From NCBI RefSeq assembly GCF_032062105.1, contig NW_026923836.1, forward strand, positions 124,001-188,000: a stretch of DNA of 64,000 bases. The letters run 5' to 3'. A program made the translations under genes and the position numbers. Shown here piece after piece: positions 165 through 63,687 of this stretch (position 1 is its first letter; each line of letters opens with the position of its first letter). Source of the DNA: Saccostrea cucullata. Lineage: Eukaryota. The notes beneath the pieces are model-generated. The model made no database searches. It was given only the letters and a program-made list of their open reading frames with translations, and was not told the origin of the DNA.

Positions 165-3100
165 GCTAACAACCCAGTAGCTGTTGGGAAGGCCCGATCT
201 AAGCAACAGAATTTACAGTGTGGTGAATACAGCCCTGATCCCACAGAGGAGAAAGTATTGTGTGTGCAAGTGCACGGTGATGCTTCTTTTTCTGCTCAGG
301 TAGGAATATCGTCTCAGTTGTTTAAGGAGATGAAAGGGTCACACTTTCTTTTATGTCTTTGGATTTTTTATTTGTTTATGATGATGCATTCTGAAGTTAC
401 CATATTCCATAGTAGCTCACCTTTTGTAAAGATTTACTGTTAACACATTTTCAGTGACATATAAAGGAATAAGTTTACTTTTTCCTCATTATCATGCACA
501 AAATGAAGGTTGTAATTCCTAATATATGTGTGTAATGTATGAATGTTTTTATTGTATTTCAAAGGGTATAGTAGCAGAAACATTCAGTATTGCTGAGTGT
601 CCACACTTCAATGTCGGTGGCAGTATACACTTAATTGTTAACAACCAGGTGGGCTTCACAACGGAGGCTTCCAGAGGCAGGTCAGCGGTCAAACACTAAA
701 TAACTTTTAAACTTTAAGAAGTTAAATATCTTTTAAAATGTCCTGCATTTGGCAGAGTTTTATCTTAATTATCAAATATTTGAAAAAGTCTTTTTATTTT
801 GCTACCGCAGTGCATTTCATCCTCTGTGTGATTATTTTACGCAGGTCCTCTAGATACAGTAGCTGTCTGGCCAAAATAAATGCCTATCCTGTTCTACATG
901 TAAATGCAGACTACCCAGAGGTATTGTAAGAAAGATAAGAAAGGCTAAGGCAGTATATTAAAAATATTTACCCTTTTGAAATGATTTACCGATACATATC
1001 TTTAATTAAAACAGAATACCACTGAACATGGATCCAAAAAAAAATTGATGATAAACATTAACTTTATTCACAAAAATTTAATATTGTAGCACCAAAAATA
1101 TTACTTTTTTGAATTCTGAAATTTTCATTCACTTCATGAAGCTAAAAAAAATGCAATAAAAATTTTGCATTGTTTTTCAAACAAGTGAAATCTTAATCTG
1201 AGCGATTTTCAACAGATTTTCAACATTCACAAATTAAATTTCTTGTTTCATTTTCTTACTATGGTCTAGTTACTCTATAGAGGTTTTAACATACCGTATC
1301 TGTTTTATATTGTAGGAAGTTTTACGAGTGACTTCTATAGCCATGGACTACAGGAAAAAGTTCAACAAAGATGTCATCATTGATTTCATCTGCTTCCGCA
1401 AACATGGCCACAATGAACTAGACGACCCCTCCTTTACCCAGCCGACCATGTATAAAGCGGTGAGAGGGAGGGACAGTATTCCCAACCAGTATGCTAACCT
1501 TCTTGTGGTATGTCGTCATATTACTGGTTCTAGCTAAATACATATAAAGAGTCCTTGTCCTATCTCTATGTAATTATTGTATCGTTAGTATGCTTACAAA
1601 CAGATTGGATTCATGCATTTTTCTAAAGAATTTTCTGAAAGGATTTTAAGTGTTCAATAAAAATCCTTCATACCTGTGACGACTATTTTATGTAGATCGA
1701 TGAGTTTTGTTAGGGAAAATACAGTATACGTTCACAACAGTTACATTCAAACTAGCAATAAAGACGTAATAAATCAAGAACTGTGCCACTTATTTATGAT
1801 CTTTTTCTCCATCATTTTTATATTCTAGTCCCAGGGACTGTGTGAGCAGGAGACATTAAATGAATCTGTCAAGACTTGGAATGCTACACTATCTGACCAT
1901 ATGTCTCAAGTGGAATCATATACACCTCAAGTAAAATATTTTATTTATTGGGCCAGAAAGATCTAAAGGTTTAAAGAATTGTAATTATAGTGACTTTACA
2001 GAATTGGTTCTTGAAATTTTGAAAAAAGTGCTCAATAACAGTTACAATATATTTAATTAAAACAGTACTACTGATGTAAGGAATGAAAATGTAGGATTAA
2101 CATTGTCAGTTACTTTAATAAGCATCTGTTTTGTAGAAATTTGACATCATTTACTCTAATTGCTATCTGTTTTGTAGAGATTTGACCTCCAGAGTCAGTG
2201 GAGTGAGCTGGTACAGCCAGGAGACATGATAACACACTGGGACACAGGGGTCTCTGTAGATCTACTGAAATACATAGGACAGAAGTCTGTAACCTGCTCT
2301 GATCTGGTGAGTGTACATGAGATTGTGTGATAGTATTGGTGAAAATTTTGGCTTAGGGTTTACATGTATGTATTTGAAGAATTATGGTCTTCTTGTATTA
2401 TTTATTCCATATTGTTGGCAGCATCTTTCAGTCTTTTAGCAAATTCTAATTCAGAGGGTTTTCATTTTATTATTGATGCAGCCATAGCAAAATTAAATTA
2501 GGAAAGCTTCAAAAATGGATGAAATTTTCACTAAAACAGAATTCTTCCCTTTTTGATGTTTTATAAGTAAAGGAAAAGGCTTTATGCTCAAGATGAAAAT
2601 TAGACACGTCTATTTGATATTGTAGAAAATCCACCCCAATGTACAGAAGGCCCATGTGGACCGTCGTCTGGAGAGGATGAAGGAGGGACGGGGGCTGGAC
2701 TGGGCCACAGCAGAGGCTCTGGCTTTTGGTTCACTGCTCTACCAGGGTAAGCTTCACATAACCTAAACTAAAATGTTTTAAAAATTCATTTATGACAGTG
2801 CAGGTGCTAAAAATGCACAAATCTGTGTCAAATTTACATACACAATGACAATCACATGAAACATGTACATGTATGTTCAGGAAAATCTTTTACTGTGTAT
2901 TCCTGTATGGGGAAGAATAAATCAATTGAAGAATTTTAAAATAAGTTATTCAAACACTTTCTTAAGCAAAGATAAATCCTAGGTGGGGCAAAAAATGACT
3001 TGATTTTGGATACCTTCATGAGGGTGGTTTTTTTTTGTAGGTTATAATGTTCGAGTGAGTGGACAGGATGTTGGGAGGGGAACCTTCAGTCACAGACACG

Positions 3101-6100
3101 GTATGCTGGTGGACCAGGAGACGGATGAGATCCACATCCCCCTAAACCACATCAAGGAGGGTCAGACAGGCTTCCTGGAGGTAAAATAGAAAGGGTTATG
3201 ACTTTGGAGGGGGGACTTACCAGATATAACATCAGGAGATCAAAAAAGGGTTCTATAGCAATGAAGCTTAAGTGTCTGGTTTATATGGTGAATGTTACCT
3301 TATCTATAACACCATCCATTTAATATTTGGCTGATACAGTAAAACATGCTTTAACATTCCAGGAACAGTTGATTTTGTTTCTTCATGAATATAACGTCTT
3401 ATATCTGTTACGTTCACATACCATGGGAAATGAAAATCACTGCACTGTAAGAATCGGTTTATTTTTAGCAAGCAATAAGCATGTCTTACTGTATTGTTAT
3501 AAATTATAAACATGTTGTACATGGTACTTTTCCAGCTGGCTAACAGTGCCCTATCTGAGGAGGCGGTCCTGGGCTTTGAGTACGGGATGAGTATAGATAA
3601 CCCTAACAACCTGATTATCTGGGAGGCCCAGTTTGGGGATTTCTTCATTGGAGCACAAATCATCATAGATACCTACATTGCCAGCGGAGAATGTAAGTAG
3701 ATTACTGACAGACAGTCATATTAGCAGATTTTGCTTTGAAGAATTGAAATTTTCATTGAACAGAGCATTAAAAAATTGAAAATTTTATCTAATATGTAGC
3801 TGTTTATTTCACTGTTTCAAGAACTCTATTTTTCTTTGTTTTGCACTGGGAATTTTATACTCATATTATGAAGTCCCTGTTTCACTAAATTTTATCTAAT
3901 GATTGGTTATGGATAACAATGATATAGCTCCTAGCATACATACTTTTGGTCTTTCAGTGAAATGGCTGCTGCAGACAGGACTAGTGATGCTATTACCTCA
4001 TGGAATGGATGGAGCAGGACCAGAACACTCATCCTGTAGGATAGAAAGGTTCCTACAGGTTGGGATTTTAACAAATTAGGATTACAATCTATTTTCTTCA
4101 TCAGACTTTACATTGACCATGCAGTATTGGTCAGGTGGTATTCATAAATGACCTTGACATGTATCTGTTGTAGATGTGTGACAGCAGTGAGGTCAAAGTG
4201 GACGGAGACAACATTAACTTGCAGGTCGTGAACCCCACCACCCCCGCACAATACTTCCACCTCCTCAGGAAACAGGTGCTGTGGTACTCTGTACTGATAA
4301 AAATCAGTCCATAATAAATGGACAACCAAAACAATTCAGAACACAAGATAATATTTTCCTGTAGTTTTTTCACCTGTGCTGAGTTCTTGGAGATGATTGA
4401 ATCACAAATTATTCTAACACTTTTAGATGGTACGTAACTTTAGGAAGCCCTTAGTAGTGGTGGCTCCAAAAATCTTACTGCGTCTGCCAGAGGCCACCTC
4501 TACTCTTGATGAAATGGCCCCTGGAACCACCTTCCTCCCAGTATTTGGCGACCCTGATGTGTCTGCGAAGAATGTCTCCAAAGTTATTTTCTGCTCTGGC
4601 AAACACTACTACACACTAGTAAAGGAGAGGGAAAATCTCAAACTTCAAAATGTTGCTGTGATTCGTTTGGAGGTACATATTGTAAATAATTATACATGTA
4701 TTAAATACTGAATAAGAATGTGATTATTATTAAAATAATGATATTCATTTTTTAAATGGATGTCTATGAGACTGCAAACCAATTATTCTGAGAATTTTCT
4801 TGGAAATGAATTGTCAATTTTATGATAAAATATCCAGATTGCGTGTTTTTTTTTCTGTTAAATCCTTTATGTGGGTAAAATGAAATCATTTCTTAAAGTG
4901 TTGATGAACTGCAAACAGAGCTTAATAATCATAATTTTTTTAAAAAAATAGATTTCTTAAAAATGCAGCTGATTGGTATTTAAAGCTGTGTATGCAAAAA
5001 ACTTATTCTTTGAGAGAATTTATTTGACGAAATGAAAAATCATTTTGTCCCTTAAAAATGCTCCGACAGCACATTATAAATACATGTATGATTAATATTC
5101 TGGGATTTCTCTTTCAAGAGCTTGTGTCCATTCCCGGCTTCAGAAGTACAAGAAGAGCTGAATAAATTTTCTAATGCCACAGGTAAAAAAAAAATATCTG
5201 AAGCTACTGCTTTCTTTTGTTTACTATGTGTATTTGAGACCTTTCATTCTTGAAATTCACCAGCAAATATTAATCTCCATAAAATGGAGGTAAATAAGAT
5301 AAGAAGAAATCATTATAATTTTTATGTACAATATTATGATAAATATAGCTATCCAGTTAAAACATTATTAGTTACTAGTATGTAGACTGAGGGATAATAC
5401 AAAAATATGTATTTTTTTTCAAGGACCTCACATATTTCCATATTACCCCTCTAAGTGGCTACATAACAAATTTATCCTGTCAAAGATTTTTTAATAAAGT
5501 TCTTTTTCTCTGAGGTAACAAATTGTTCTGTAACAATTGTTTACATTGTGACGTCATTTTTTGTTCATATGACGTCAGTTATTAGGCTTTTGCGTGTTCA
5601 AATGAAAACAACTTATCTGTGCTGTATGGCACGCGGAGGGGATTTGATGTGATGTGTGGTGGGTAGGTCATGTGGAGGGGGCACATTAGCAATATGATGT
5701 GGGTAGACAGCATAGTATTGATTGATACAGTATTTTTCTCTACCAATGAAATTTCACAATTTTTATCAGAAGCAGAATAATGCAGCATACAGTATCACTA
5801 TTTATTTTCACAATTAAATTTGTGTAAATGGTGTGTGCCAGGAAATGTTTGTAAGTTGAATAAGGTCTCAAAAACCCACAAATATAGATCCAATGCAATG
5901 TGAACAAAGTTGGTTTACAGTTACATGTACTTGAATATTGTACATAACTAAAAGACATTAAGTACTGGTAATTATTTATATATCGGTTTTTGTAGACTTT
6001 GTGTGGAGTCAGGAAGAACACAGAAACATGGGAGCCTGGAGTTTTGTGTCACCTAGATTTGAAAATGTTTTAGGAAAGAAGGTAAATTATTAAGAAAGGC

Positions 6101-8059: not shown

Positions 8060-8588
8060 AACAAGAGGCACATGGGCCACAACGCTCACCTGAGTAGCTT
8101 TGACCATGCTGTTCTTTACCAGATTTACCCCAAGTAATACATATTGTGACCCCACCCTACCCCACAGGTCATGATTTGGACAATTTAAAATCTACATTAT
8201 CCCAGGATGTTTTCACATAAGTTTCAGCTTTTCTGGTCCAGTGGTTCTTGAGAAGTAGATTCTTCAATTCAGTTCAATTCATTTATTGACAAAGATTTTT
8301 CCTTTTAAATTCTTTGTAAAACTTTGATTCCCTAGTGGCCCTGCCCTACCCCCACGGGTCATGATTTGAACAATTTAGAATCTACACTACCCTGTGATGC
8401 TTCCACATAAGTTTCAGCTTTTCTGGCCCAGTGGTTCTTGAGAAGAAGATTTTTAAAGATTGTTCCTATATTTTCTATGTTAAACTTTGATTCCCTATTG
8501 TGGCCCCACCCTGTGAAGGGACTTGGCCCTTAATTTTTACAATTTAAACTCCCCTTCACCCAAGGATGCTTTGTTCCAAGTTTGGTTA

Positions 8589-8625
<37 letters not shown>

Positions 8626-8682
8626 GTGAAAAGTTTACAGACGGACAGAGAGCTAGACAGAAGGACAGACATAATGTGAATT

Positions 8683-8723
<41 letters not shown>
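8060..8723 (-). mobile_element. Non-autonomous Helentron/HINE with ~2-3 internal ~166-bp Cg170/HindIII-like repeats
   Basis: One end is AACAAGAGGCACATGGGCC (hairpin) plus subterminal GCTCACCTGAG. The other end is GAGCCTTCGGCTCAGGTGAGCTAAAAA, with a (GACA/GACG) microsatellite just inside it. Confidence 0.8.
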
Positions 8724-9212: not shown

Positions 9213-12200
9213 AAACCAGAAGTCTCTGTCGAGACTGTAGCTCTACTGGTTTGTACTTATAACAAAGGATGAGAAAAGAAGCCATTGCCATCAGACCAAA
9301 ACTGTAGAGGGAGTATCATGTTAAAGGAATTTCACAGAAATTTCTATTTTTAGTAACAATGGTAACACTGTACATCGAAATCAAAATCCAATGCACTATT
9401 TATGTATCTTAGTGTAGTCTACTTGTGTGCCAAGTTATATTGAAATCAGACCAAAACTGTAAAAGGAGTAGCATTTTTAAGGAATTTCACAGAAAATTCT
9501 ATTTTTAGTAACCATGGCAACACCATTCATTGAAATCAAAATTGAATGCACTATTTTTAGCTCTTCTGAGCCAAAGGCTCAAAGAGCTAATGCTATGGCC
9601 ATTTGTGTGGTGTGCGTCGTGCGGTGTGCGTTAACTTTTTAGAATATGGGCCATAACTCAAGAACCCCTTGGCCAATCAGTGTCAAATTTGTCACAGGGT
9701 ATCCTTGGCCCAAGGGCTACCATTTATACTAAAATAAGGGTTGGGACCCTAAAACAAGGGGAGATAATCAGGAAAACAAAACCAAAAGTACTGGTTGCAA
9801 AAAAATCTTCTTCTCCAGAACCACCAGGCAGATTTTCACCAAACTTACATACAATGATCAGGATATGTTGAAGATTAAAAATTGTTCAAGGCATGACCCT
9901 GGGGCAAAGGGCGTGGTCTCACACTTCAAAGTTGACCTAAATTTACAATTAATGAAAATGTCTATATTTTACTTACTATAAGGACTAGGATCATCAAATC
10001 TTGTAAGTAGATGCATCTTAGGACTTCACATCATGTTAACTCAAAAGTAGGTCACGGTGACCTACTTTTTTAATTTTGCGGGCATTTGTTTACAAATTGA
10101 TTTGAAGGCATATTTAGGACACTTTAAGGCCTATGATCATCAAACTTTGTCAGTTGATGCATCTTGGGTCCTTGAACAACGTAACTTAAAAGTAGGTCAC
10201 CGTGACCTACTTTTTGAACTTTATGACTTATCCTGTTTAAAACATTTCATCCCATTATTTCAGACACTGAGAGGGTTAGAATCATCAAATCTTGTAAGTT
10301 GCTGCATCTTGGGACCTTAAAACATATTTAAGTAAAAGTAGGTCACTGTGACCTACTTTTTGAACTTTATGACTTATCCTTTTTAAAACATTTCATCCCA
10401 TTATTTCAGACACTGAGAGGGTTAGAATCATCAAATCTTGTAAGTTGCTGCATCTTGGGACCTTAAAACATATTTAAGTAAAAGTAGGTCACTGTGACCT
10501 ACTTTTAGAATTTTGCAGGCATTTGTTTTCAAATTGTTTAAAAGGCATATTTTGATTACCTTCAGACCAATGATCATCAAACTTGGTCAGCTGATGCATC
10601 TTGGGACTCTGAAAAATGTGACCTACTTTCGACATTTTATGGCTATATTTCAGTATCTTAGGTATTTCTTGGCTTAGAATCATCAAACTTTGTGAGTTGA
10701 TGCATCTTGGGTTTTCGGAGAGTGATGACCAAAAATTAGGTCACGGTGACCTACTTTCAATATTTTATTGCTATATTTATGTATCTCCAGTACTTTTCAG
10801 CTTAGAATCATTAAACTTTGTCAGTTGATGCATCTTGGGTTTTGAATGTCGACCAAAAAGTAGGTCACGGTGACCTACTTTTGACATTAAATGGCTATAT
10901 TTATGTATTTCTGGTACTTATCGGCTTAGAATCATCAAACTTTGTTAGTTTATGCCTCTTGGGTTTTCAGAGAATGTCGACCAAAAAGTAGGTCACAGTG
11001 ACCTACTTTTGAATATCAGGTAATTGGCTTAGAATTATCAAACTTGGTTAGCAGATGCATCTGAGGCCTCTGATAAATGTCAACCAAAATGTAGGTCACG
11101 ATGACCTACTTTTGACATTTAATAGCTATATTTACTATCTCCAGTACTTATCGGCTTAAAATCATCAAACTTTGTCAGTGTATGCATCTTGGGTTTTCGG
11201 AGAATGTTGACCAAAAAGTAGGTCACGATGACCTACTTTTGACATTTTATGGCTATATTTAAGTATCTCCGGTACTTATTGGCTTAGAATCATCAAACTT
11301 TGTTAGTTTATGCCTCTTGGGTTTTCAGAGAATGTCGACTAAAAAGTAGGTGACGGTGACATACTTTTGAATATCTCCGGTACTTATTGGCTTAGAATCA
11401 TCAAACTTTGTCAGTTAATGTATCTTGGGTTTTCCAAGAGTGTAGACCAAAAAGTAGGTCAAGGTGACCTACTTTTGAATATCTCAAATACATATTGGCT
11501 TAGAATCTTCAATCTTAGTTTGTCTATTATGTATCTTGAGTCCTCAGAAAACTTCAGTCTTAAAGTTGGTCACCATGACCTACTCATGTTTTTTTTTTTT
11601 ATAGCTTTATTAAAATATCCTAGTCCTAATTGGCTAAGAATCATCAAACTTTTTATCAGATGATGCAGCTTAGGTTTTAGGATACTTAGGGTTAGAGGAT
11701 TCAAATACAAGTGATAGGTTGTACAATTTATCAGAAGAGCGATTCAAGGCCCTTGGGCCTCTTGTATGTATCTTAGTGTAGTCTACTTGTGTGCCAAGTT
11801 ATATTGAAATCAGACCAAAATTGTAGAGGGAGTAGCGTTTTTAAAGGTATTTCACAGAAAATTCTATTTTTAGTAACCATGGCAACACAATTCATCAAAA
11901 TCAAAATCGAATGCACTATTTTATGTATCTTAGTGTAGTCTACTTGTGTGCCAAGTTATATTGAAATCAGACCAAAACTGTAGAGGGAGTAGTGTTTTAA
12001 AGGTATTTCACAGAAAATTCTATTTTTAGTAACCATGGCAACACAGTTCATCGAAATCAAAATCCGATGCATTATTTTAGGTATCTTAGTGTAGTCTACT
12101 TGTGTGCCAAGTTATACTGAAATCAGACCAAAACTGTAGAAGAAGTAGCGTTTTAAAGGAATTACACAGAAAATTCTATTTTTAGTAACCATGGCAACAC

Positions 12201-12569
12201 CGTTCATCGAAATCAAAAACCGATGCACTATTTCATGTATCTTAGTGTAGTCTACTTGTGTGCCAAGTTATATTGAAATCAGATCAAAACTGTAGGAGGA
12301 GTAGCATTTTAAAGGAATTTCACAGAAAATTCTATTTTTGGTAACCATGGCAACACCGTTCAAGGAAATCAAAATCCAATGCACTATTTTATGTATCTTA
12401 GTGTAGTATACTTGTGTGCCAAATTATATTAAAATCAGACCAAAACTGTAGGAGGAGTAGCATTTTGAAAAATTGTTTACAGACAGACGGACAGCTAGAC
12501 AGACGGACGGACGACGGACACCTTACTATCGCATAAGCTCTTCTGGTCTCTGACCAGTAGAGCTAAAAA
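9213..12569 (-). mobile_element. Non-autonomous Helentron-type element with 156-bp internal tandem repeats, interrupted by a nested element
   Basis: The left end has hairpin AGTCTC-TGTC-GAGACT and subterminal AGCTCTACTGGT. The right end has the inverse ACCAGTAGAGCTAAAAA, preceded by a (GACG/GACA) microsatellite. The repeat register is 11784/11941/12097/12253/12409. Confidence 0.8.
9557..11764 (+). mobile_element. Nested non-autonomous Helentron-type element with 103-146-bp internal repeats
   Basis: It begins TTAGCTCTTCTGAGCCAAAGGCTCAAAGAGCT and ends TCAGAAGAGCGA..AGGCCCTTGGGCCTCTTG. It splits the host repeat GCACTATTT|TATGTATCTTAG within a T-run with no TSD, as expected for Helentrons. Confidence 0.82.
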
Positions 12570-13842
12570 TCTGGTCCATTTTTATGTAGAATTCATCCAT
12601 ACAACTGACAGAATCATGAGATGACCAATTTGCACACTATAACAACAAAACCTTTGCCTGTTTATTCCTTTTTTATTTTCATGACAATACAATATTTTAA
12701 TAACATGCTCTTCTGAAGACACCTGCAGAAGAATATACAGCAACACTTTATTGGAAAATAGCACAGGGCTTAGGAAAGGGTTTAGTTTTCTTTACATTTG
12801 ATAAGCTTGGTATCATGGTTTTTTTCATTGGATAACAATTACTTCAACTTATAGCTTTAACTTTTCCCAACAAATCTTGGACATGGAAATACTTCTCCAT
12901 TTCCATGATTTCTCTAGCTTTCAGCTACTTTCTAAATAAAAGGTCAAATATTTATAGTAAAACCATTAAGAATAAACCAAGGTTGATACACATATATACG
13001 GTACATGAATTATAAATAAATTGTGTGAATACCGGTAGAATTATGTAAGACATACTTTACTGTGTTAATTACTTTCACTTTAATATCTGTATACCGGTAT
13101 GTACTGTACGTAAAACTGGGTTTTGCTGGAATAAAATCATTGTGGTTTTCTATAAAGCCGTCCCAGGATTCTAGGTTCATGCATCGTAAAATTTAAATAT
13201 TTTTTTCTAATTAAAATGTAAAATCTTGTGAGGATTGGTTGGTTATTAACAAGTACAGGTCATATTATCTATTCCCATACTGGTATACCTAAATGCATGC
13301 CTGCATAGCACATCTGGACAAAACAACTCGAGTATATTTTACAATATGATCAGCATATATTCATATATATGACACAATAAACCTTTGAAAGTCACATGAT
13401 TAATCACATGACCAATATAATTTCATATCTTGCATGCATTATGAACACACCACTCTGGCATGATACTGCAAACTGAGAAAAAAAAAGTTCTATATATAAA
13501 ACATCAGATACATATCAAATAATATAAAGAAAATGAATATGACAGTAATGCTTAAAATGAAGATGAACTGCTGGCTTGCTTGAATACAGAAATAAAGCTG
13601 GGAAAAAATATGGATCAAAAATTTCACATGCTCAAGGTACATGTACTTTTCATGAGTTCCAACACTGTGGTTTCACTTTTTTCCTGCTATCCACATCTTC
13701 TTTTTCCTTGTTAAACGGAACCAAACATTCAGCACAAATAATGGATCGTATAGTCAGCAGTGAATATATTTGTTTTAACAGACTTTTAGGCACACTATTG
13801 CAGATCACAGATTTACACTTGTAAAGTTAAACACATGTAATT

Positions 13843-16800
13843 TCAGTACCATCCTCCAGTTAACTTATGAAATAATTCCTCATTGAGAGTTTGATTTTTG
13901 TCCGATGATCTCATGGAAAGGAAGATATATCCTCCAATGAACTCATGCACCACTTTACAGTCAGCACTCAAACAAGCAAAGGTCAGAGTCTCCCCCTCAA
14001 ATTCTAAAATAACATGTCTCACTTCCCAGTTCACATGCCATGATTTCAGACTTCCGTAACGCCATGTTTTTATGGAATCACCAGAGTTCAAGTCCATTCG
14101 CATTATTTTGTTTGGCGATACTCCCAAGAGCTCCTGTAAGAAAATACAAATGCATTCAATTTACATTTATAATACAATGACATAAAATACTATACACATT
14201 GTTTTCCCTTTCTTTTTCTCTTGTGCATTTTTTACCCAAAGATTAACAGTTTTTTCCAAAAACTCTTTACAGGCCCATAAATGATGAGGGTTAAAATAAG
14301 AATGGGAAAAATTTGCTCAAAATTTCTTTCAAGTGGTTAATCAAGACTAAAATTTACTGTAAATTAAGTTTGTCATTGATGAAAAAATAAATACCTCTTT
14401 CTTGGCATTCTTCTGCTTGATGATGAAGTAGCTGATGCCATAATCAGGAAGAGACTGCCAGGCTTTTATAAACGCCATCTTGGAATCCATCAGAGGCAGA
14501 TTCTGGACATTAGCATGGGCCTCTAGTATTCTCTTCTCCAGCTTAAAGGGAATAATGAACAAATTTAATATAGCAGGTTTGCACCTCTTTGAAAATCAGT
14601 AAGTTATGAGGCAAAGCTTTGAATTTTCTTGTTCGGAGGGCTATAAGATATAGAGCTGTTCTGTCTGTAAACATCTGATTTCAAAATGATTTCAATTAAT
14701 AAACAGTACATGTACAGTGTACTTAAAATTACATGTACTTAAATTTATACAGGGCTGTTTAATTAGGGTTCACAAATGTCAAAATAATAATGCTCCATGT
14801 ATATGTATTGCTCTTGCAATTTTTATTTGTAGAGAATATGCTGAATTTAAATATTCTTCCTTATTTCTTGAAATAGAAATTATTGAATTGTCTATCTAGC
14901 AATAGGACCTACTTGTTTCCCTTTTAATTTCTTGTAGAACCTGGGTGCCACATAGTCCTCTGGGTTCTTAATGTCCACCTGTATGGGGGTCACAGGGGCA
15001 TCTGTGGGGGTCTGTCGGCTCAGCAGGGTCCTCAGACTCTGGACCTCAGTGTCGTAAGAACTGTCCGCCATTGTTTTGCCCTGGGAAGCTAACTTACATG
15101 CTGCCATCCACTTGCAATATTCATCTTCCTGAAAAATCATAACATACCACACATTTATACATGGTTGAGAAAAAATATAATTGCAAGCTATTTGAGGAAA
15201 TATAATTAACAGAGCTTAAATGAGCTTAAATCTGTTAACTTTACTCTTATTGTAAACTAAACTGAACTTTTGGTCATTATCTCACATCAGATATAAAGAA
15301 ATATGCAGTATCCAAGATGTGAACCTTGGCTCCTTTCTTCACAATTTGTTTATCTTACCGTTTCAAACCTCAGCCACAGTTCAGACATTCCCTCAGGTGA
15401 TGGGATAAAAAGCTTTATTCCATACTTAGCATGAGAAATGTTCAGATCTGGTTGAGCTTCACAGCCTGTAAAAAGTTGAATGGATAATCTTGTCTTGATT
15501 TAATACACCTTCATTGAAAGAATCTAACACCTAAGCTTCAACTAGGAGCAATGATCATGAAGTAACGGTACACATATTAGATATGCATGTGAGAATAAAA
15601 ATTGTTTATAGTATTGAAATATACTATCTTTAATATTTTTAGCTTGTCATGCAACATCAATGGACTAAAATAAACTATAGCAGACAGACAAAGGAAAAAA
15701 AAAATTCCTTGTAAGGCCATATAAAATTGAAATCTTGGTTCTCAGGCCCGCGCGCATCCGTTTTGAGGTAGCCGCATTGCCGATTTTATTGTATTTTTGA
15801 TAAAATAAAAAGTTGGTGTTGCGGAGACCAATGGGAAAAAAAATTCCTACCTCATTTGTTTCGTAGTTTAGTATTCAAATATCACTTCCGGTAGCCATTT
15901 ACAATGAGATTTTGGCTACTTCGTTTGAAAATACATTCGAGGACATTACCTACGATTTTTACACGCTGTTAAGCAATAGATAAAGCAGAAGTTTTGACCA
16001 GAAATGGAAAGTATATCTGTGATTAAAAAAATTATCTTTATGTTTAAGAAATATATTAAAATTAAAAAAAATACCTTTTCTACTTTATTGCCAATAAAAT
16101 GAAAAATAAAATGCCGCCCTCCCGCATCTGTTTTGGAGAAAATTGGCCTGAGAACCAGGGAATTAAATATAGATAGCCTAATATGTCACAGCCTGCATTT
16201 CATTTTTCTCCCTTTTTTATGATCCCATTCAACAGCTGTTCCATGACCTTTGACCTTACCTTTGATGGATATTTTCATCATTGGACTTCCTGAAGCCTCC
16301 TCCTGACTCTTGAAGAAAGCTATAAATAAATCCTTACAGACACACCAGGCTCTCTTGTAGCTCTTCAAGGTGAACTTTTTAGGTCTGAAATAAAAAATTC
16401 AAAGTTACAACACCTGCAGAGAACTTTCTTTTCTTAGATCATCTTGATAATTTCTATCATTGATTTCTAAAATTTCCCATCCATTTATTGTGAATAATAC
16501 TTTCAATATTTATCTGCTGTCCATTTAGCTGCAGAACTGTAGCTTTCTGCTTGAGAAAATTTGGTGGTATAAATCGAAGGTTTTTACAATATATGGAACT
16601 GTAGCTCTCTGCTTTATCTGTCTGAATTTTCTTGAACAGAGAGCTACAGTTCTGCAGCTACTGTCCAATATAAATGAATGTTAACTCTCTTCATAACTTC
16701 ATACTTTCAATAAATACTTTTAAACTTTATTGATAGTTATAAGTAAACTTACTTGAACCACTTGACATAACCACCAAGTTCTGGTACTGATGTGATGTCC

Positions 16801-19800
16801 CCATGAGAGGAGATGTTGGCCACTTGTAAAGACTGCTCTAAGTTTGACAGATCAGCATCAATGTCATCTGCCTCCATGTGGGGGGAACTGTGGTCCATAA
16901 TGGAGGAATCACTGGGGGGCTGAGATTGACCCATCTGCATCTGAACCTGAACCTACACGGACAAAATGTTTACAAGTCAGAAATCAGAAATTTTAAAATC
17001 AGAGAGTTCTCTCCCTTGTAATCACTTCATCAAAATGTTTTTCAGGATTCAATGTGAAAATATGCTGTGTGAAGATATGCTGTACAAGTAGGTTTAATTT
17101 CACATAAGATTTAAAACCCATAAATAATATTCCAACATACTTTTATTGCTATTTTGACAATTTTTAATTTACATAATTAATTTTTTTTTTCTCAAAAAAT
17201 TGCTCTTTCATAAAATTCAGAAAAATGTGTACATTGCTGGCTGGGTGAAACTTTTACATACAAAAAAAACAATATGTCGGACAATGAACCACATTTCTGA
17301 AGCATTGTGCTTGTCAAAACAGGGAGATAATGCATTTAGAATAAACAACTAGGTGCAAAAACCTTGAATTCTCCACATAAGCCAAATTCTCAGGTGTAAA
17401 AAATGGAAAACACTTATTAACAAGTCTACTTCATGATTACCAATTAATTTTGATTTGGGAATAAAAATGTGGAAACTGAATTTCCACACAAGATTTATGA
17501 TATTTTTTCCATTTTATTTTGGCTTGCATTTTGCAACATGCAGCCAAAACTCATACTAAACAGAGACAGAATCTTGATAATTGGAATTCTGAGTCCATCT
17601 GCTTTTGCCAACAGAAGGAGATTTATTTTCTCCCTATAATCCTGCCTCTGTTCTGAAATGATTTATTCTAAGCATCACTTGGTTTACATCAACTCTTCAC
17701 TCCAAAAGCTCACCTGTAAATATTTTGTTTCCAAGGTAACTAAGAGGAGTGCATACAAAACTATTAAGTCTTTGAAGATTTTCATCTCCATTGAAACAGC
17801 AAAAAATCTATCATACTGTTTGCACATGCCAACAGAAAGAGGCAATTATTTTATTTAGATACTGACTTTCCCCTTCATTTTTTATAGCACCAGTGTTAAC
17901 CTCCATGCATTGGTCAAGTTTAATTCAAGCAAACTCTATCAAGTACCTGCAAACATTTCCAATTTATTACTGTTTTTTATCACAGAATTTTGGGTAGATT
18001 GTTATTTGCTTGAGACTTATAGGACACTTTTTTTAACCACCCTGTAAATTGTCCATGTTGACCTTGTGTTCTGAGGTCAAATTCTTTACCTGCAGCGCTG
18101 CAAACATCATCATTTCTTCTTCTGTACAGTCGATTTCCTCAGACATTATACTCCATTTGGCTTGTTCATAGATCTGGTTAATCCTCACAGCGTCGTACTG
18201 GAAGAAAAAAAGGAATCAAATCTTTCAGTTCACCTAATACTCGACAGACACCTTGATTGATACATGAATGAATCTTTGCAGTAAAAAAATTGCTGACTAA
18301 GACCTTGGAAGAACAATAGCATGGCTTAAAACATAATGTCTGATCAATGCAACAAGTTTTTTCTCTTCTTAATGCATATTGCATGTAGATTATATGAAAA
18401 TTAAGTTCAATGACCATGTAATTTTGAGATTAAGGGATAAAAAACAATTTATATACTGTAACAAAATATGCCAATAAAGGGATAATAACAAATTACATGG
18501 GGAAAAAAAAACAAAACCATGACAATAAAGTAATTGTAAGGGATTAGACAAGAGCCACTTATATTAACAAAGACTATAGGTCCTTTATGTTAGTGTATTG
18601 CAGAAGTCACTGTCCTTAAAAGATATTTCAACTTCTTAATCTTCTAAGGACAAAACTACATGGAGAAGAGGCAGATTTGCTTACAATTATACAGTATAGG
18701 ATGTGCTCACAGTGGATGACTATCAAGCCTCTATACAAAGCCTGCTGTGTGTGCCCTGCTGTATGAAATGAAGTTCAATGGCCATATGATAAAAAGAACT
18801 CTCAAGGGTCTTCCTGTACATTATGTATGGAATTTATGAAGAAAATTGAAGTTCGCCTGCCTTTCAGCAGATAGTGCTCACCGCAAGACTTCACTTGACA
18901 AGCTAACACATTCCTTGAAGGGTCTGCAACACTGTTAATTCTCTTATAATCAGTTGCATCACGGAAGTTTTTATCTCTCACCATTCCAAGCCTCAAGTCA
19001 GTTTCCAAGACAACCCAAATATTTATGTTTCAGTGTTACATGCCCACCAGCCCCCCTGGCTTATTATCACTGGAGCAAACCTCAAGGAGGGATTTCTTGG
19101 AAACAGATCATGTGTTTGTGTTTTTCTTTGTATGAGGGATGTCTCTTTGAAAGAGCAACATCTACCCTCTTGAACACTCAATGATAATTAACTATTCCCC
19201 TTCTGTGACATCAGATGTTATATTTTTTGTAACATGTAACAAATGTTGGCACTTCACTTATCTGAAACATGTTTGACACTTAGAACTCGACTGCTTATGA
19301 TCAAAAAATGTTTTTGGTAGTAAATGTTTTGCACAACTTGTAAACAAAAACACAATATTTACAGTTATAAATGGTTGACGGCTATATGTAGGTTAATTTG
19401 ATGATCAAACTAAGTTGGCTTCCTTAAAAGTACATAACCTTGACTAGAGGATGAATCAAAAATATATACCAAAACAAAATGAGACAGCCAAAAAAACAAA
19501 CCCTTCCAACCCACACAAACAAATGTTCCGCCATGGTTTAAATGAGATAAACAAAAATAAATTGTAACAATGCAGATTGAGCAGAGGCAGTCAGATAGGA
19601 GCAGGTATGGTTCATTATATGAGCTAAATACTTCAATACTGTACAGAACCCCAAGCTCTGGAGCCATTCCAAACACAGCATCAGGAATGTTATTAAATTC
19701 TGAATCCCTGTGCCTTCATCTTCAATGTGCAAGCTTTACCTTTACAATAAACTTGGGAGGGAAAGGGCTACTTTCTTTTTCATTCATTACAATAAACCTT

Positions 19801-59973: not shown

Positions 59974-60999
59974 TTATACAGGGGTACTCCTGCCTGACTC
60001 GCATCCATTGCCTACAGGAAAATCAAAATTACCTTATCACTTACAACAAAAACAAAACACTTCTGTCTGATTTCAAATTATAATGGAATGATGTTCTGGG
60101 GCTGAACAAATACTGCTGCTTGCCACCCAAGGGTAAGTGCTTTTATGGTAGGACAAGGTCTTCACAAATCTATTTGTCAGCCCTTGGTATTCATTTCATA
60201 ACAAGAGGCCCAGGGGCCACAGCGCTCACCTGAGCACATCGGGCTTGAATTTACCCCCCCCCTCCAGGTGTTCATCATTTGAACAAACGAGAATCTACAC
60301 TACCTGAGGATGATTCCATATAAAAATCACTAATCAATTCTTTGAAGTACTTGAAAAGAAGATTTTAAAAGGTTTCCCTATATATCCCTATGTAAAACTT
60401 GGGTCGGCCATTTTGGCCCCATCCTAGCCCCGGGGGGCATCTTTTTAACAAACTTGAATCTGCACTACCTGAGGATGATTCCACATGGGTTTCATCTTTC
60501 CTGGCCCAGTGGTTCTTGAGAAGGATTTTTTAAAGATTTTTCTTATATATTCCTATGTAAAAGTTGGGTCGGCCATTCTGGCCCCACCCTTGCCCCGGGG
60601 ATCATGATTTGAACAAACTTGAATCTACACTACCTGAGGATGATTCCAAATGAGTTTCATCTTTCCCGTCCTAGTGGTTCTTGAGAAGAAGATTTTTAAA
60701 GATTTTTCCTATACATTCCTATGTAAAACTAGGGTTGGCCATTTTGGCCCCACCTTTTCCCGGGGATCATGATTTGAACAAACTTGAATCTACACTACCT
60801 GAGGATGCTTCCACATGAGTTTCATCTTTCCTGGCCTAGTGGTTCTGGAGAAGAAGATTTTTTAAACATTTTTTCCTATATATTCCTATGTAAAAGTTGG
60901 GTCGGCCATTTTGGCCCCACCCTTGCCCCGGGGGTCATGATTTGAACAAATTTGAATCTACACTACCTGAGGATAATGCCACATGAGTTTCATTTTTCC

Positions 61000-61032
<33 letters not shown>

Positions 61033-61563
61033 GAGATTTTTCCTTTATATTCCTATGTAAAAGTTGGGTCGGCCATTTTGGCCCCACCCTTGCCCTGGGG
61101 TCATGATTTGAACAAAATTGAATCTGCACTACCTGAGGATGATTCCACATGAGTTCCATCTTTCCTGGCCCAGTGGTTTTGGAGAAGAAGATTTTTTAAA
61201 CATTTTTTCCTATATATTCCTATGTAAAACTTGGGTCGGCCATTTTGTCCCCAACCTTGCCCCGGGGGTCATGATTTGAACAAACTTGAATCTACACTAC
61301 CTGAGGATGCTTCCACATGAGTTTCATCTTTCCTGGCCCAGTGGTTCTGGAGAAGAAAATTTTTAAATATTTTTCCTATATATTCCTATGTAAAACTTGG
61401 GTCGGCCATTTTGGCCCCACCCTTGCCCAGGGGGTCATGATTTGAAAAAACTTGAATCTACACTACCTGAGGATGCTTTCACATGAGTTTCATTTTTCCT
61501 GACCCAGCGGTTCTGGAGAAGAAGATTTTATTAAAATGCCATTAAATTTTTAACAAATTCATG

Positions 61564-61630
<67 letters not shown>

Positions 61631-61666
61631 AACTTTGTACCAAGTTTGGTTGAAACTATAGTTCTT

Positions 61667-61702
<36 letters not shown>

Positions 61703-61721
61703 AACAACGACAACGACGACA

Positions 61722-61753
<32 letters not shown>

Positions 61754-63687
61754 ATTGAGCCTTCGGCTCAGGTGAGCTAAAAAGTCCAAAGAATTAATTG
61801 CTAAATATATCCAGCTTAATTCAGTAAATGAGTGACTTTATACATGCAAATTGTATTTTTACCATGTTGTATTCCAATGGGAATTAATTATTTTACAAAA
61901 CAGTTCTATTAAAAACCATATATCAAATCAGGTCTGACAGCAAACTTCTTCATAATTTCAAATCATAACTTTTTAAAAGAAATCATTTCTAGCAAGGATG
62001 ATTCAGGATAAATACATACAATGTATATCTACAAGTTTTTACCTAATCGTTCTGCAGGCCCCCATATCCTAACCGTGCCATCATCTGAGGCACTGGCCAA
62101 CATGCCTGGTAGCTTGGGATTCCAGTGAACACAGTTAACGGTCCTAGAATGGCCCTCCAGGACGGCAATTGGCTCCTCTTTTCTTAGATGCCATACATAA
62201 ACTTTGTGATCTGAAAATATTTAAAATGTACATTAACTTATATATTAACTTAAAGTTGATTTCCTTTTACACATCCTCAATTTTAATATACAGTGGACCC
62301 TCATTTATCCGGATGCTTTGGTTCCTAGTCAATTTGTTCGGATATGTGAATCATCCGGATATCTGATTTACCAGTTAAACAAGACAAAATAACTTTTAAA
62401 AAATTTGTTCCGATGAAAAATCGTCGGATACTGAAGCATCCGGATATCTGGTGTCCGGATATCTGAAGGTCCACTGTATATTTTACAGTACTGTATGATA
62501 TGTCACTAGTTCTCCTTAAAAGATGGACATCTATTAAAGACTTCAGAAAACAAATAAACCCATATGTTGGTCCACTTTAACATTTCTTTCTTGTTCTGTT
62601 AATGAATTTTACTTCTTGGAACTGACAAAGTGAAGTTCCACTGTCTATATAAAGGCCATTGGTTTGAATCCTACCTAAAATGCTAATATTCTCAACCTTA
62701 TTTTCATACCAAGTCATGAAGTTAATGAAATATGAACTTTACTGCATTTCATGAACTAGTATCTAATACACAATTCATTTTCTCCAATAAGTTTATTAGT
62801 ACTAACCTTCACTTCCACTGGCAATGAAGTCTTGATTTAGTCCTCCAAAACATGAATGTATTGTGTAAAATCCCTGTGTAACCCCTTGAAATTTCCTTAC
62901 TAAGCACCTATCATGCAAGTCCCATAAATGAATTCCCTGAAATAATGGTGCAGACAATTAAGGGTATTGTAAGATTTTGAAACAAAGGGACACTCTACCC
63001 TTTCAATTTCAGTTATGACCCTAAAAATTGAAACAATTCATAATTTGATCATTAAAAAAGATAGCTTTTAACTGATTGAATATCTCACAGTGCAAGTGAC
63101 TAAACTATATAGTCTACCCTCATGAACATTAAAATTTTTAATCCATATATCTAAATCACACCAAGAGGAAAACTTATTAATAGTTGTGTTGTTGGATCAA
63201 TGCAAGATGCAAGTACATTTGAATAGCTTCAAAAAGTCAAAAACCTTTTCATGTACATACCTGAGTAGCTACATTGAGTAATATTAATCTTCCTGTATCA
63301 TTTAATGTGAAAGACATGACTGGATGATCTTCTTGTATTCTGAAAAAAAAAAATCAAGGAAATTACAACATCCTTCAAAAATCTAAGTAAATATAAACAT
63401 TTCTTAGAGTAAAAGAAAGTTTACTTGTATTATGTTTTGAAAGATATAGTGTCTTTATATTCTTGTGTTATAATGAGAATTGAAGTAAGAGGTAATTCTT
63501 CATATTTGATCATGAATTCAAAACTTCTAACACCGTCTTACACATTGAAGTCTGCAAGTTCGTCAAAGTTATATCCCCTGACGCGATGATGGGTGTCGGC
63601 AGCGAGGACTGTTTTCCCGTCATTCTGGCAGGCTATACATTGTACACGCACACCTTCCCAGGAATCCAACACATTGCCGTCAAGATC
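59974..63687 (-). CDS. WDR26: WD repeat protein 26 (CTLH/GID7), 3' portion; continues beyond window end
   Basis: Not in the ORF track. Exons (minus strand): 63687-63542, 63339-63261, 62936-62807, 62210-62043, probable last exon 60011-59974. Peptides are [79 protein letters not shown], ending [12 protein letters not shown]. The last exon is less certain than the others. Confidence 0.93.
60200..61783 (-). mobile_element. Non-autonomous Helentron/HINE with ~8 tandem 165-168-bp Cg170/HindIII-like satellite units, in the last WDR26 intron
   Basis: It has the same ends as 8060-8723. The GAATCTRCACTACCTGAGGA register is 60456, 60621, 60786, 60954, 61120, 61288, 61454. Confidence 0.85.
62291..62476. 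mobile_element. pogo/Tigger-like MITE
   Basis: TA|CAGTGGACC ... GGTCCACTG|TA, with internal TCCGGATA repeats. Confidence 0.8.

Follow-up and report, generated by a model that had tools for sequence, protein, structure and literature searches.

The locus considered here raises the question of whom a transcription-factor site serves when it is carried repeatedly within a mobile element: the genes of the host, the element itself, or neither. The first-pass annotation of the window (the whole stretch of 64,000 nucleotides of Saccostrea cucullata DNA that was analysed) had described a Helentron whose 156-bp units each carry a perfect RFX X-box. The box is found at every place claimed: GTAACCATGGCAAC is exact at 9508, 11873, 12029, 12185, 12341 and 26538, and the near match at 9353 is GTAACAATGGTAAC, which differs from GTAACCATGGCAAC by two mismatches. 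With up to two mismatches allowed there are nine matches in the window compared with 0.31 expected from shuffles, but since one box per unit follows from tandem duplication, this test proves the repeat to be real and nothing more. The RFX consensus string is GTNRCC-N0-3-RGYAAC. The motif fits the 14-bp X-box, validated examples of which in C. elegans include GTTTCCATGGTAAC and GTTGCTATAGCAAC (PMC3245922), and a cognate RFX is present, with a genome search for the RFX DNA-binding domain giving 10 matches to PF02257 on 8 contigs. In the host Helentron unit a second motif, AARTTT..AAATC (the core), follows 64-65 bp after the box. The sites in the window are:

9353..9366, plus strand: variant X-box (2 mismatches), its core lying 64 bp downstream
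9508..9521, plus strand: exact X-box, parted from its core (11795) by a nested element
11873..11886, plus strand: exact X-box, core 11952-11968
12029..12042, plus strand: exact X-box, core 12108-12124
12185..12198, plus strand: exact X-box, core 12264-12280
12341..12354, plus strand: exact X-box, core 12420-12436
26224..26570, plus strand: remnants of the host family within an intron of kindlin, decayed and rearranged, with boxes at 26232 and at 26538

The box at 26538 belongs to a decayed fragment of the host family, of which more remnants lie at 26224-26445. The host element itself is a non-autonomous Helentron (HINE), an identification that agrees with the earlier description and is made on the following structural features:

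9214..12569, minus strand: host HINE, subfamily A, split by the nested element; ends common to dozens of copies
12553..12564, minus strand: 5' subTIR, 12 bp, followed on the plus strand by an A-run (the element's 5' T-run) to 12569
12536..12547, minus strand: inverted repeat (IR) partner of the 5' subTIR
12480..12518, minus strand: GTCY-type microsatellite, from the sequence and genome copies
11765..12466, plus strand: tandem central repeats, 4.5 copies of a 156-bp unit, 93% matches
9558..11765, plus strand: nested second HINE, T-run insertion, repeats with ten AGGTCAnnnTGACCT palindromes
9239..9250, minus strand: 3' subTIR, 12 bp, matching the 5' subTIR
9221..9236, no strand: 3' palindrome (hairpin)

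Six units of the host element bear a box, five of them exact, and the unit with the box at 9508 is interrupted by the 2.2-kb nested element; when this was excised in silico, the second host unit and its 65-bp spacer were restored exactly, with no duplication. Read on the minus strand, the order of T-run, 5' subTIR, IR, GTCY microsatellite, 156-bp units, 3' subTIR and palindrome follows the HINE plan in the available parts of PMC7492417 and PMC4067079. Cg_HINE of the Pacific oyster likewise has a 5' subTIR with its IR, a GTCY microsatellite, central repeats of 140-180 bp, a 3' subTIR and palindrome and a habit of nesting in other repeats, and its T-rich insertion site is matched by that of the nested element (PMC7492417, in part). 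A repeat of 156 bp is therefore ordinary for oyster Helentrons, and the roughly nucleosome-length spacing was rejected as evidence. Four X-box strings had no matches in the array supplement of that paper, which places the host repeat family outside clusters CL1-13, and the host unit had no BLAST match to the 166-bp Cg170-like array of the window, itself matched by eye to CL1 rows. By description, in the portions available of PMC5874043, PMC3879986 and PMC11136912, the element also resembles pearl CvA in its modular build, CvA having 2-6 copies of a 156-bp core, and DTC84, each unit of which has a conserved palindrome; it differs from CvA, whose repeats have been described as a variant of Cg170/HindIII.

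In the 1.17 Gb of genome searched, dozens of copies share both ends of the host element and have unrelated flanks that end in A/T-runs, and the 5' end has 7,808 matches at no more than two mismatches. By our estimate the units of the family number about 40,000. Helentron Rep/Helicase open frames that run for 2,600-2,850 aa free of stops occur by the dozen, so that the family was probably active recently; none of the 20 Rep loci examined, of at least 150 in the genome, bears the ends of the host family as its own. The host family is also present in sequencing runs of two organisms and in RNA contigs, a run-level presence that we do not read as expression.

The first-pass annotation had further linked the array to spermatogenesis or ciliated tissue. 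The genes of the window are:

1316-4708, plus strand: exons of a 2-oxoacid dehydrogenase E1 gene
12660-33147, minus strand: kindlin exons
12660..14160, minus strand: kindlin last exon and 3' UTR, transcripts stopping near 12660, which leaves some 90 bp to the element
39552-48807, minus strand: exons of a TPR-repeat gene
62032-62220, minus strand: exons of a WD40 gene

The host element sits between two 3' ends, those of the 2-oxoacid dehydrogenase E1 gene and kindlin, neither of them ciliary, and this copy is not shortly upstream of any ciliary gene start, which argues against such a role at this locus. At 15255-17024, RNA reads on both strands cover parts of kindlin introns and are probably repeat-derived.

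Conservation of the box across family copies bears on the question more broadly. A motif-blind sample drew on the first 100 of the 7,808 terminus matches: regions surrounding most of these were taken, 80 in all, and 78 of the regions were used; the listed terminus matches were all exact, so this sample leans young. The motif was spanned by 462 of 627 BLAST rows, from 74 loci, and the box was exact in 164 of the 462. The claim of a perfect X-box in each unit thus stands for the host copy, with five of six boxed units exact, and fails for the family. Among 449 near-full units, 186 belong to subfamily A (129 exact) and 263 to subfamily B (29 exact), the majority box of the latter having a C at position 8 that creates a CpG. 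At the 12 non-CpG positions, changes counted by parsimony came to 0.78 of the base-matched expectation (P 0.10) and private changes to 0.85 (P 0.17); changes were 0.82 of expectation on terminal branches (P 0.13) and 0.70 on internal branches (P 0.11), and 0.69 (P 0.14) and 0.81 (P 0.25) when assessed by frequency. A second phasing, of 424 units, put box changes at 0.75 of background (P 0.054) and core decay at 0.91. Spacer lengths were non-modal at 12% for the box-core spacer and 13% for the other spacer, so that the former is no better kept. The comparison across copies that had been proposed as a check therefore came close to the background-rate decay named beforehand among the refuting outcomes (0.69-0.85, P 0.054-0.25): the box decays slightly slower than background at best. 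Special conservation within the family was rejected, none of six tests giving P <0.05 save for a subset of seven positions chosen post hoc (0.64 of background, P 0.017), and an apparent excess of motif over flank identity in divergence bins was set aside as confounded by subfamilies, CpGs and truncated first units. Some master copies (L107, L154 and L158) multiplied even though part of their units had broken boxes. These three loci are separate insertions with one common ordered series of unit variants, broken boxes included, as is described for DTC84.

Uptake of the arrays by the host as RFX enhancers of ciliary or sperm-tail genes has in its favour a valid X-box and the presence of RFX genes in the genome; Helitron-borne HSEs rewire genes in Caenorhabditis (PMC6927752, in part), and the mild deficit of change at the seven post hoc positions would be compatible with constraint on a minority of copies. 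The copies are nevertheless dispersed, number in the thousands and decay at near the background rate. Host ciliary control by the box is unsupported, and we regard this explanation as very improbable. Like the HSE Helitrons, the host element is a rolling-circle element with many sites for one host factor; binding and gene regulation were shown there, whereas the site described here is defined at the level of sequence (PMC6927752, in part).

The CpG of subfamily B brings in another role for the host, in which the box would recruit a repressive RFX complex and the elements so tamed would be tolerated and persist. RFX1 binds methylated sites and recruits HDAC1/mSin3, and at some genes it increases H3K9me3 (PMC8106159, in part). 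The box CpG of subfamily B decays like other CpGs, from which germ-line methylation of this subfamily is probable, and its decay leans towards TG, the product of which is a perfect box (51 TG against 19 CA, compared with 108 against 79 at the other three CpGs; P 0.03, although copies are not independent). This lean may perhaps have come about by conversion from subfamily A. Host selection acting copy by copy should, however, deplete private mutations clearly, and the observed 0.82-0.85 is not significant; moreover, the fixed distances that separate the box from a second motif and from the end of the element, considered next, suggest an assembled complex more than a tag for silencing. We therefore judge silencing to be improbable.

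In a direct count, the genome holds 748 box-core pairs at 63-68 bp compared with 23 at 70-95 bp, and the wider pairs are mostly indel derivatives of the same families; these searches for the pair were seeded with the box. Most of the 748 lie near the ends of TTAA-ended elements, and their spacers are largely unalignable. The palindromic form of the box, GTTRCCATGGYAAC, occurs at 4,320 places and its reversed control at 12; the majority of 35 GTTRCCATGGYAAC loci examined lie outside the host Helentron family, and many have a core-like motif 63-66 bp past the box. With a profile of the core built from window repeats only, 4 of 23 box clusters had their best match at 62-67 bp (P 0.02), the three top scores among them. 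The array had been read as one of a lone motif, and this reading has to give way to one in which the box is one half of a two-part module common to another element class.

Most of these other carriers are non-coding, measure 1.7-7.5 kb and bear an outward-facing module at each end, and their shared terminus, TTACAGAGAAT-N5-TTAA, has 2,660 matches compared with 13 for a control. Eight TTAA end types align with the Helentron unit without gaps at box and core, whilst the spacers are near random (z of -1.6 to 3.1 for the unit against the families, mean z of 1.1 among the families), one pair of end types that aligns at z 4.7 being the exception. Given that the eight end types form one clade with one terminus, the genome provides two carrier lineages and not nine. 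At 64 TTAA ends, most of the loci for which came from box searches, the nearest box is 157-159 bp inside at 32, 146-150 bp inside at 19 and elsewhere at 3, with none at 10, and the two distance classes differ by about one helical turn. In twelve loci for which the search used the terminus pattern and nothing else, 12 of 17 ends had a box by hand count, and one more box-core-TTAA end was met unsought. Derivation of the 156-bp unit by copying of a whole TTAA end was rejected since the tails are unaligned (z -0.3 to 1.2). For Crypton as carrier of the TTAA ends no link was seen, neither box nor terminus being found at any of 20 DUF3504 loci with 1.5-kb flanks, and 18 ORFs scanned for the TTAA-ended elements gave no transposase family, with Crypton, Kolobok and piggyBac considered. 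Some TTAA-ended elements (L244 in G000:C424, L247, L248 and L250) are non-coding, 6.5-8 kb long and have inverted arms of about 2 kb made of internal repeats; another (L182/L183/L210, for example G000:C6:3817-5566) is 1.75 kb long with at least six internal X-box-like sites.

It may be that the pair is a passenger, captured once long ago and inherited since, or that it is read by a transposase or another protein with RFX incidental. Near-background decay of the box is in keeping with this, as is the finding that a control 14-mer from the host 156-bp unit is intact 29,194 times in the genome and the exact word GTAACCATGGCAAC 12,956 times; DNA capture is known for Helentrons (PMC7492417, in part), and the length of the TTAA module (147-158) resembles that of the 156-bp unit. 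On the other hand, box and core alone stay fixed whilst spacer and tail are near random, the variation among families stays within the known range of X-boxes (GTT, GTA or GTC at the start and GGCAAC, GGTAAC or AGCAAC at the end), and a single transposase acting on a Helentron as well as on a TTAA-ended element would be unexpected. Taken together, we consider a passenger or non-RFX site somewhat unlikely.

Starting from the observed module, its spacing, its spread and the near-background decay of inserted copies, our preferred reading, to which we give about an even chance, is that the module is an old cis-acting one that docks host RFX for the benefit of the elements, and is kept by selection on transposing lineages rather than on host genes. 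Host RFX would bind the candidate box, and the core would be bound by a second protein at a constant helical face; acting jointly in the germ line, the two may mark the element or open it up, leaving it within reach of a transposition enzyme supplied in trans. That RFX on the box and a second protein on the core make the element accessible in the germ line is a step on which we are evenly poised. Over long times, loss of the module would cause a lineage to fade, and single copies would drift after their insertion. A pair that is kept across rewritten lineages and yet drifts in inserted copies fits selection on the elements, and near-background decay of box (0.75) and core (0.91) is the pattern expected under constraint at the level of lineages. 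MDBP/RFX1 accepts methyl-C in place of T (PMC3185043, in part), and by analogy the CpG form of subfamily B, in which the central T is replaced, may bind mainly when methylated.

A precedent outside transposons is provided by AAV, where RFX1 and RFX3 bind the subterminal sequence of the terminal repeat; like the present module, the D sequence places an RFX site immediately within the end of a piece of mobile DNA (PMC5760533, in part). It differs in being viral, with one site, with binding established by EMSA and pull-down and, in the part of PMC5760533 available, no partner motif at 65 bp described. Against docking, shared ancestry could explain the box-core pair, given two lineages only, and the window has Helentrons that bear the core without the box, whilst copies with broken boxes still spread. 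The box array was absent as part of 20 autonomous Helentron loci of at least 150, and an array acting as a promoter upstream of Helentron genes was not seen in these 20. A wider generalisation is that unrelated classes of animal DNA transposon share an RFX docking module, its site phased at 64-65 bp to a universal core and set some 147 or 157 bp inside the element end, that nucleosome-length satellite-like monomers are often tandem copies of it, that RFX is a general germ-line cofactor of transposition, and that the CpG variant is a methylation switch; this we hold to be distinctly doubtful.

HINEs with repeats and transposons with sites for host factors were already known; what is new is the box-core pair at fixed spacing, and it is this pairing with a second motif, common to another element class, that sets the host element apart from the HSE Helitrons. 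A literature search returned nothing on RFX sites in bivalve Helentrons or on the pair, although the supplements of PMC11136912 and PMC3879986, sources available in part, may hold such repeats, and six box strings had no matches in the supplement of PMC8268682. The conserved boxes of satellite and Helentron repeats in bivalves have a long history of interpretation as protein sites, the protein going unnamed in the available part of PMC3879986, and the Cg_HINE paper notes conserved boxes with no factor named in the portion available (PMC7492417). These boxes now gain a named candidate in RFX, together with a partner motif and a spacing rule. If correct, our reading would link the central repeats of Helentrons to the ends of another transposon class and would point to a host factor used by many DNA transposons. 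There is also a caution here, for in mollusc genomes repeats dominate both the counts and the enrichments of RFX motifs, with some 13,000 exact copies of GTAACCATGGCAAC alone.

A scan of metagenome contigs (at least 120 contig stretches) for the box-core pattern, with a gap of 50-80 bp and no requirement for the GT start, extended the search to other DNA. Among the matches listed there were 122 in 39 clusters, one of them a cluster of 54, and the GT start of the full box was present in 78 of the 122 matches and 20 of the 39 clusters, compared with 1 of 29 matches in a prokaryote control of 596 Gb of genomes. Among the listed matches the spacing ran from 50 to 80, with its mode at 64-68 (14 of 39 clusters, P 0.002); 8 of 29 control matches fell within this modal range (P 0.08). 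Several of those listed consist of tandem units, 132-182 bp long, that each hold a single box, and some end in Helentron-type microsatellites and some in TTAA; it is because of this anatomy that we take the repeats to be animal DNA. One metagenome contig (L383) has a 170-bp tandem unit with X-box, core and a TTGTCCGGACAA palindrome. That palindrome is given for DTC84 of Donax (PMC3879986, in part), and DTC84 may itself bear the box. An animal-like repeat is also matched by two short contigs of bacterial assemblies (L414, L417 and L387), which are probably host contamination.

The remaining repeats of the window show the core in other company. Its two other Helentron families have the core and lack the box. 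The nested HINE at 9558-11765, many copies of which occur elsewhere (L124, L195, L462 and L471), has the core about 45 bp from its AGGTCAnnnTGACCT palindrome, which we take to be nuclear-receptor IR3/ERE-like. Cg170/HindIII-like HINEs with a 166-bp unit, at 60200-61790 and 8060-8723, also have the core, and about 60 bp before it, in the slot of the X-box in the host unit, stands the word GGCCCCACCC, presumably KLF/SP-like. An inverted pair at 48827-48932 and 49412-49514, made of 10/21-bp minisatellites, probably represents the arms of a small foldback element, and a minisatellite array of about 20 copies of 30-34 bp lies at 51255-51916.
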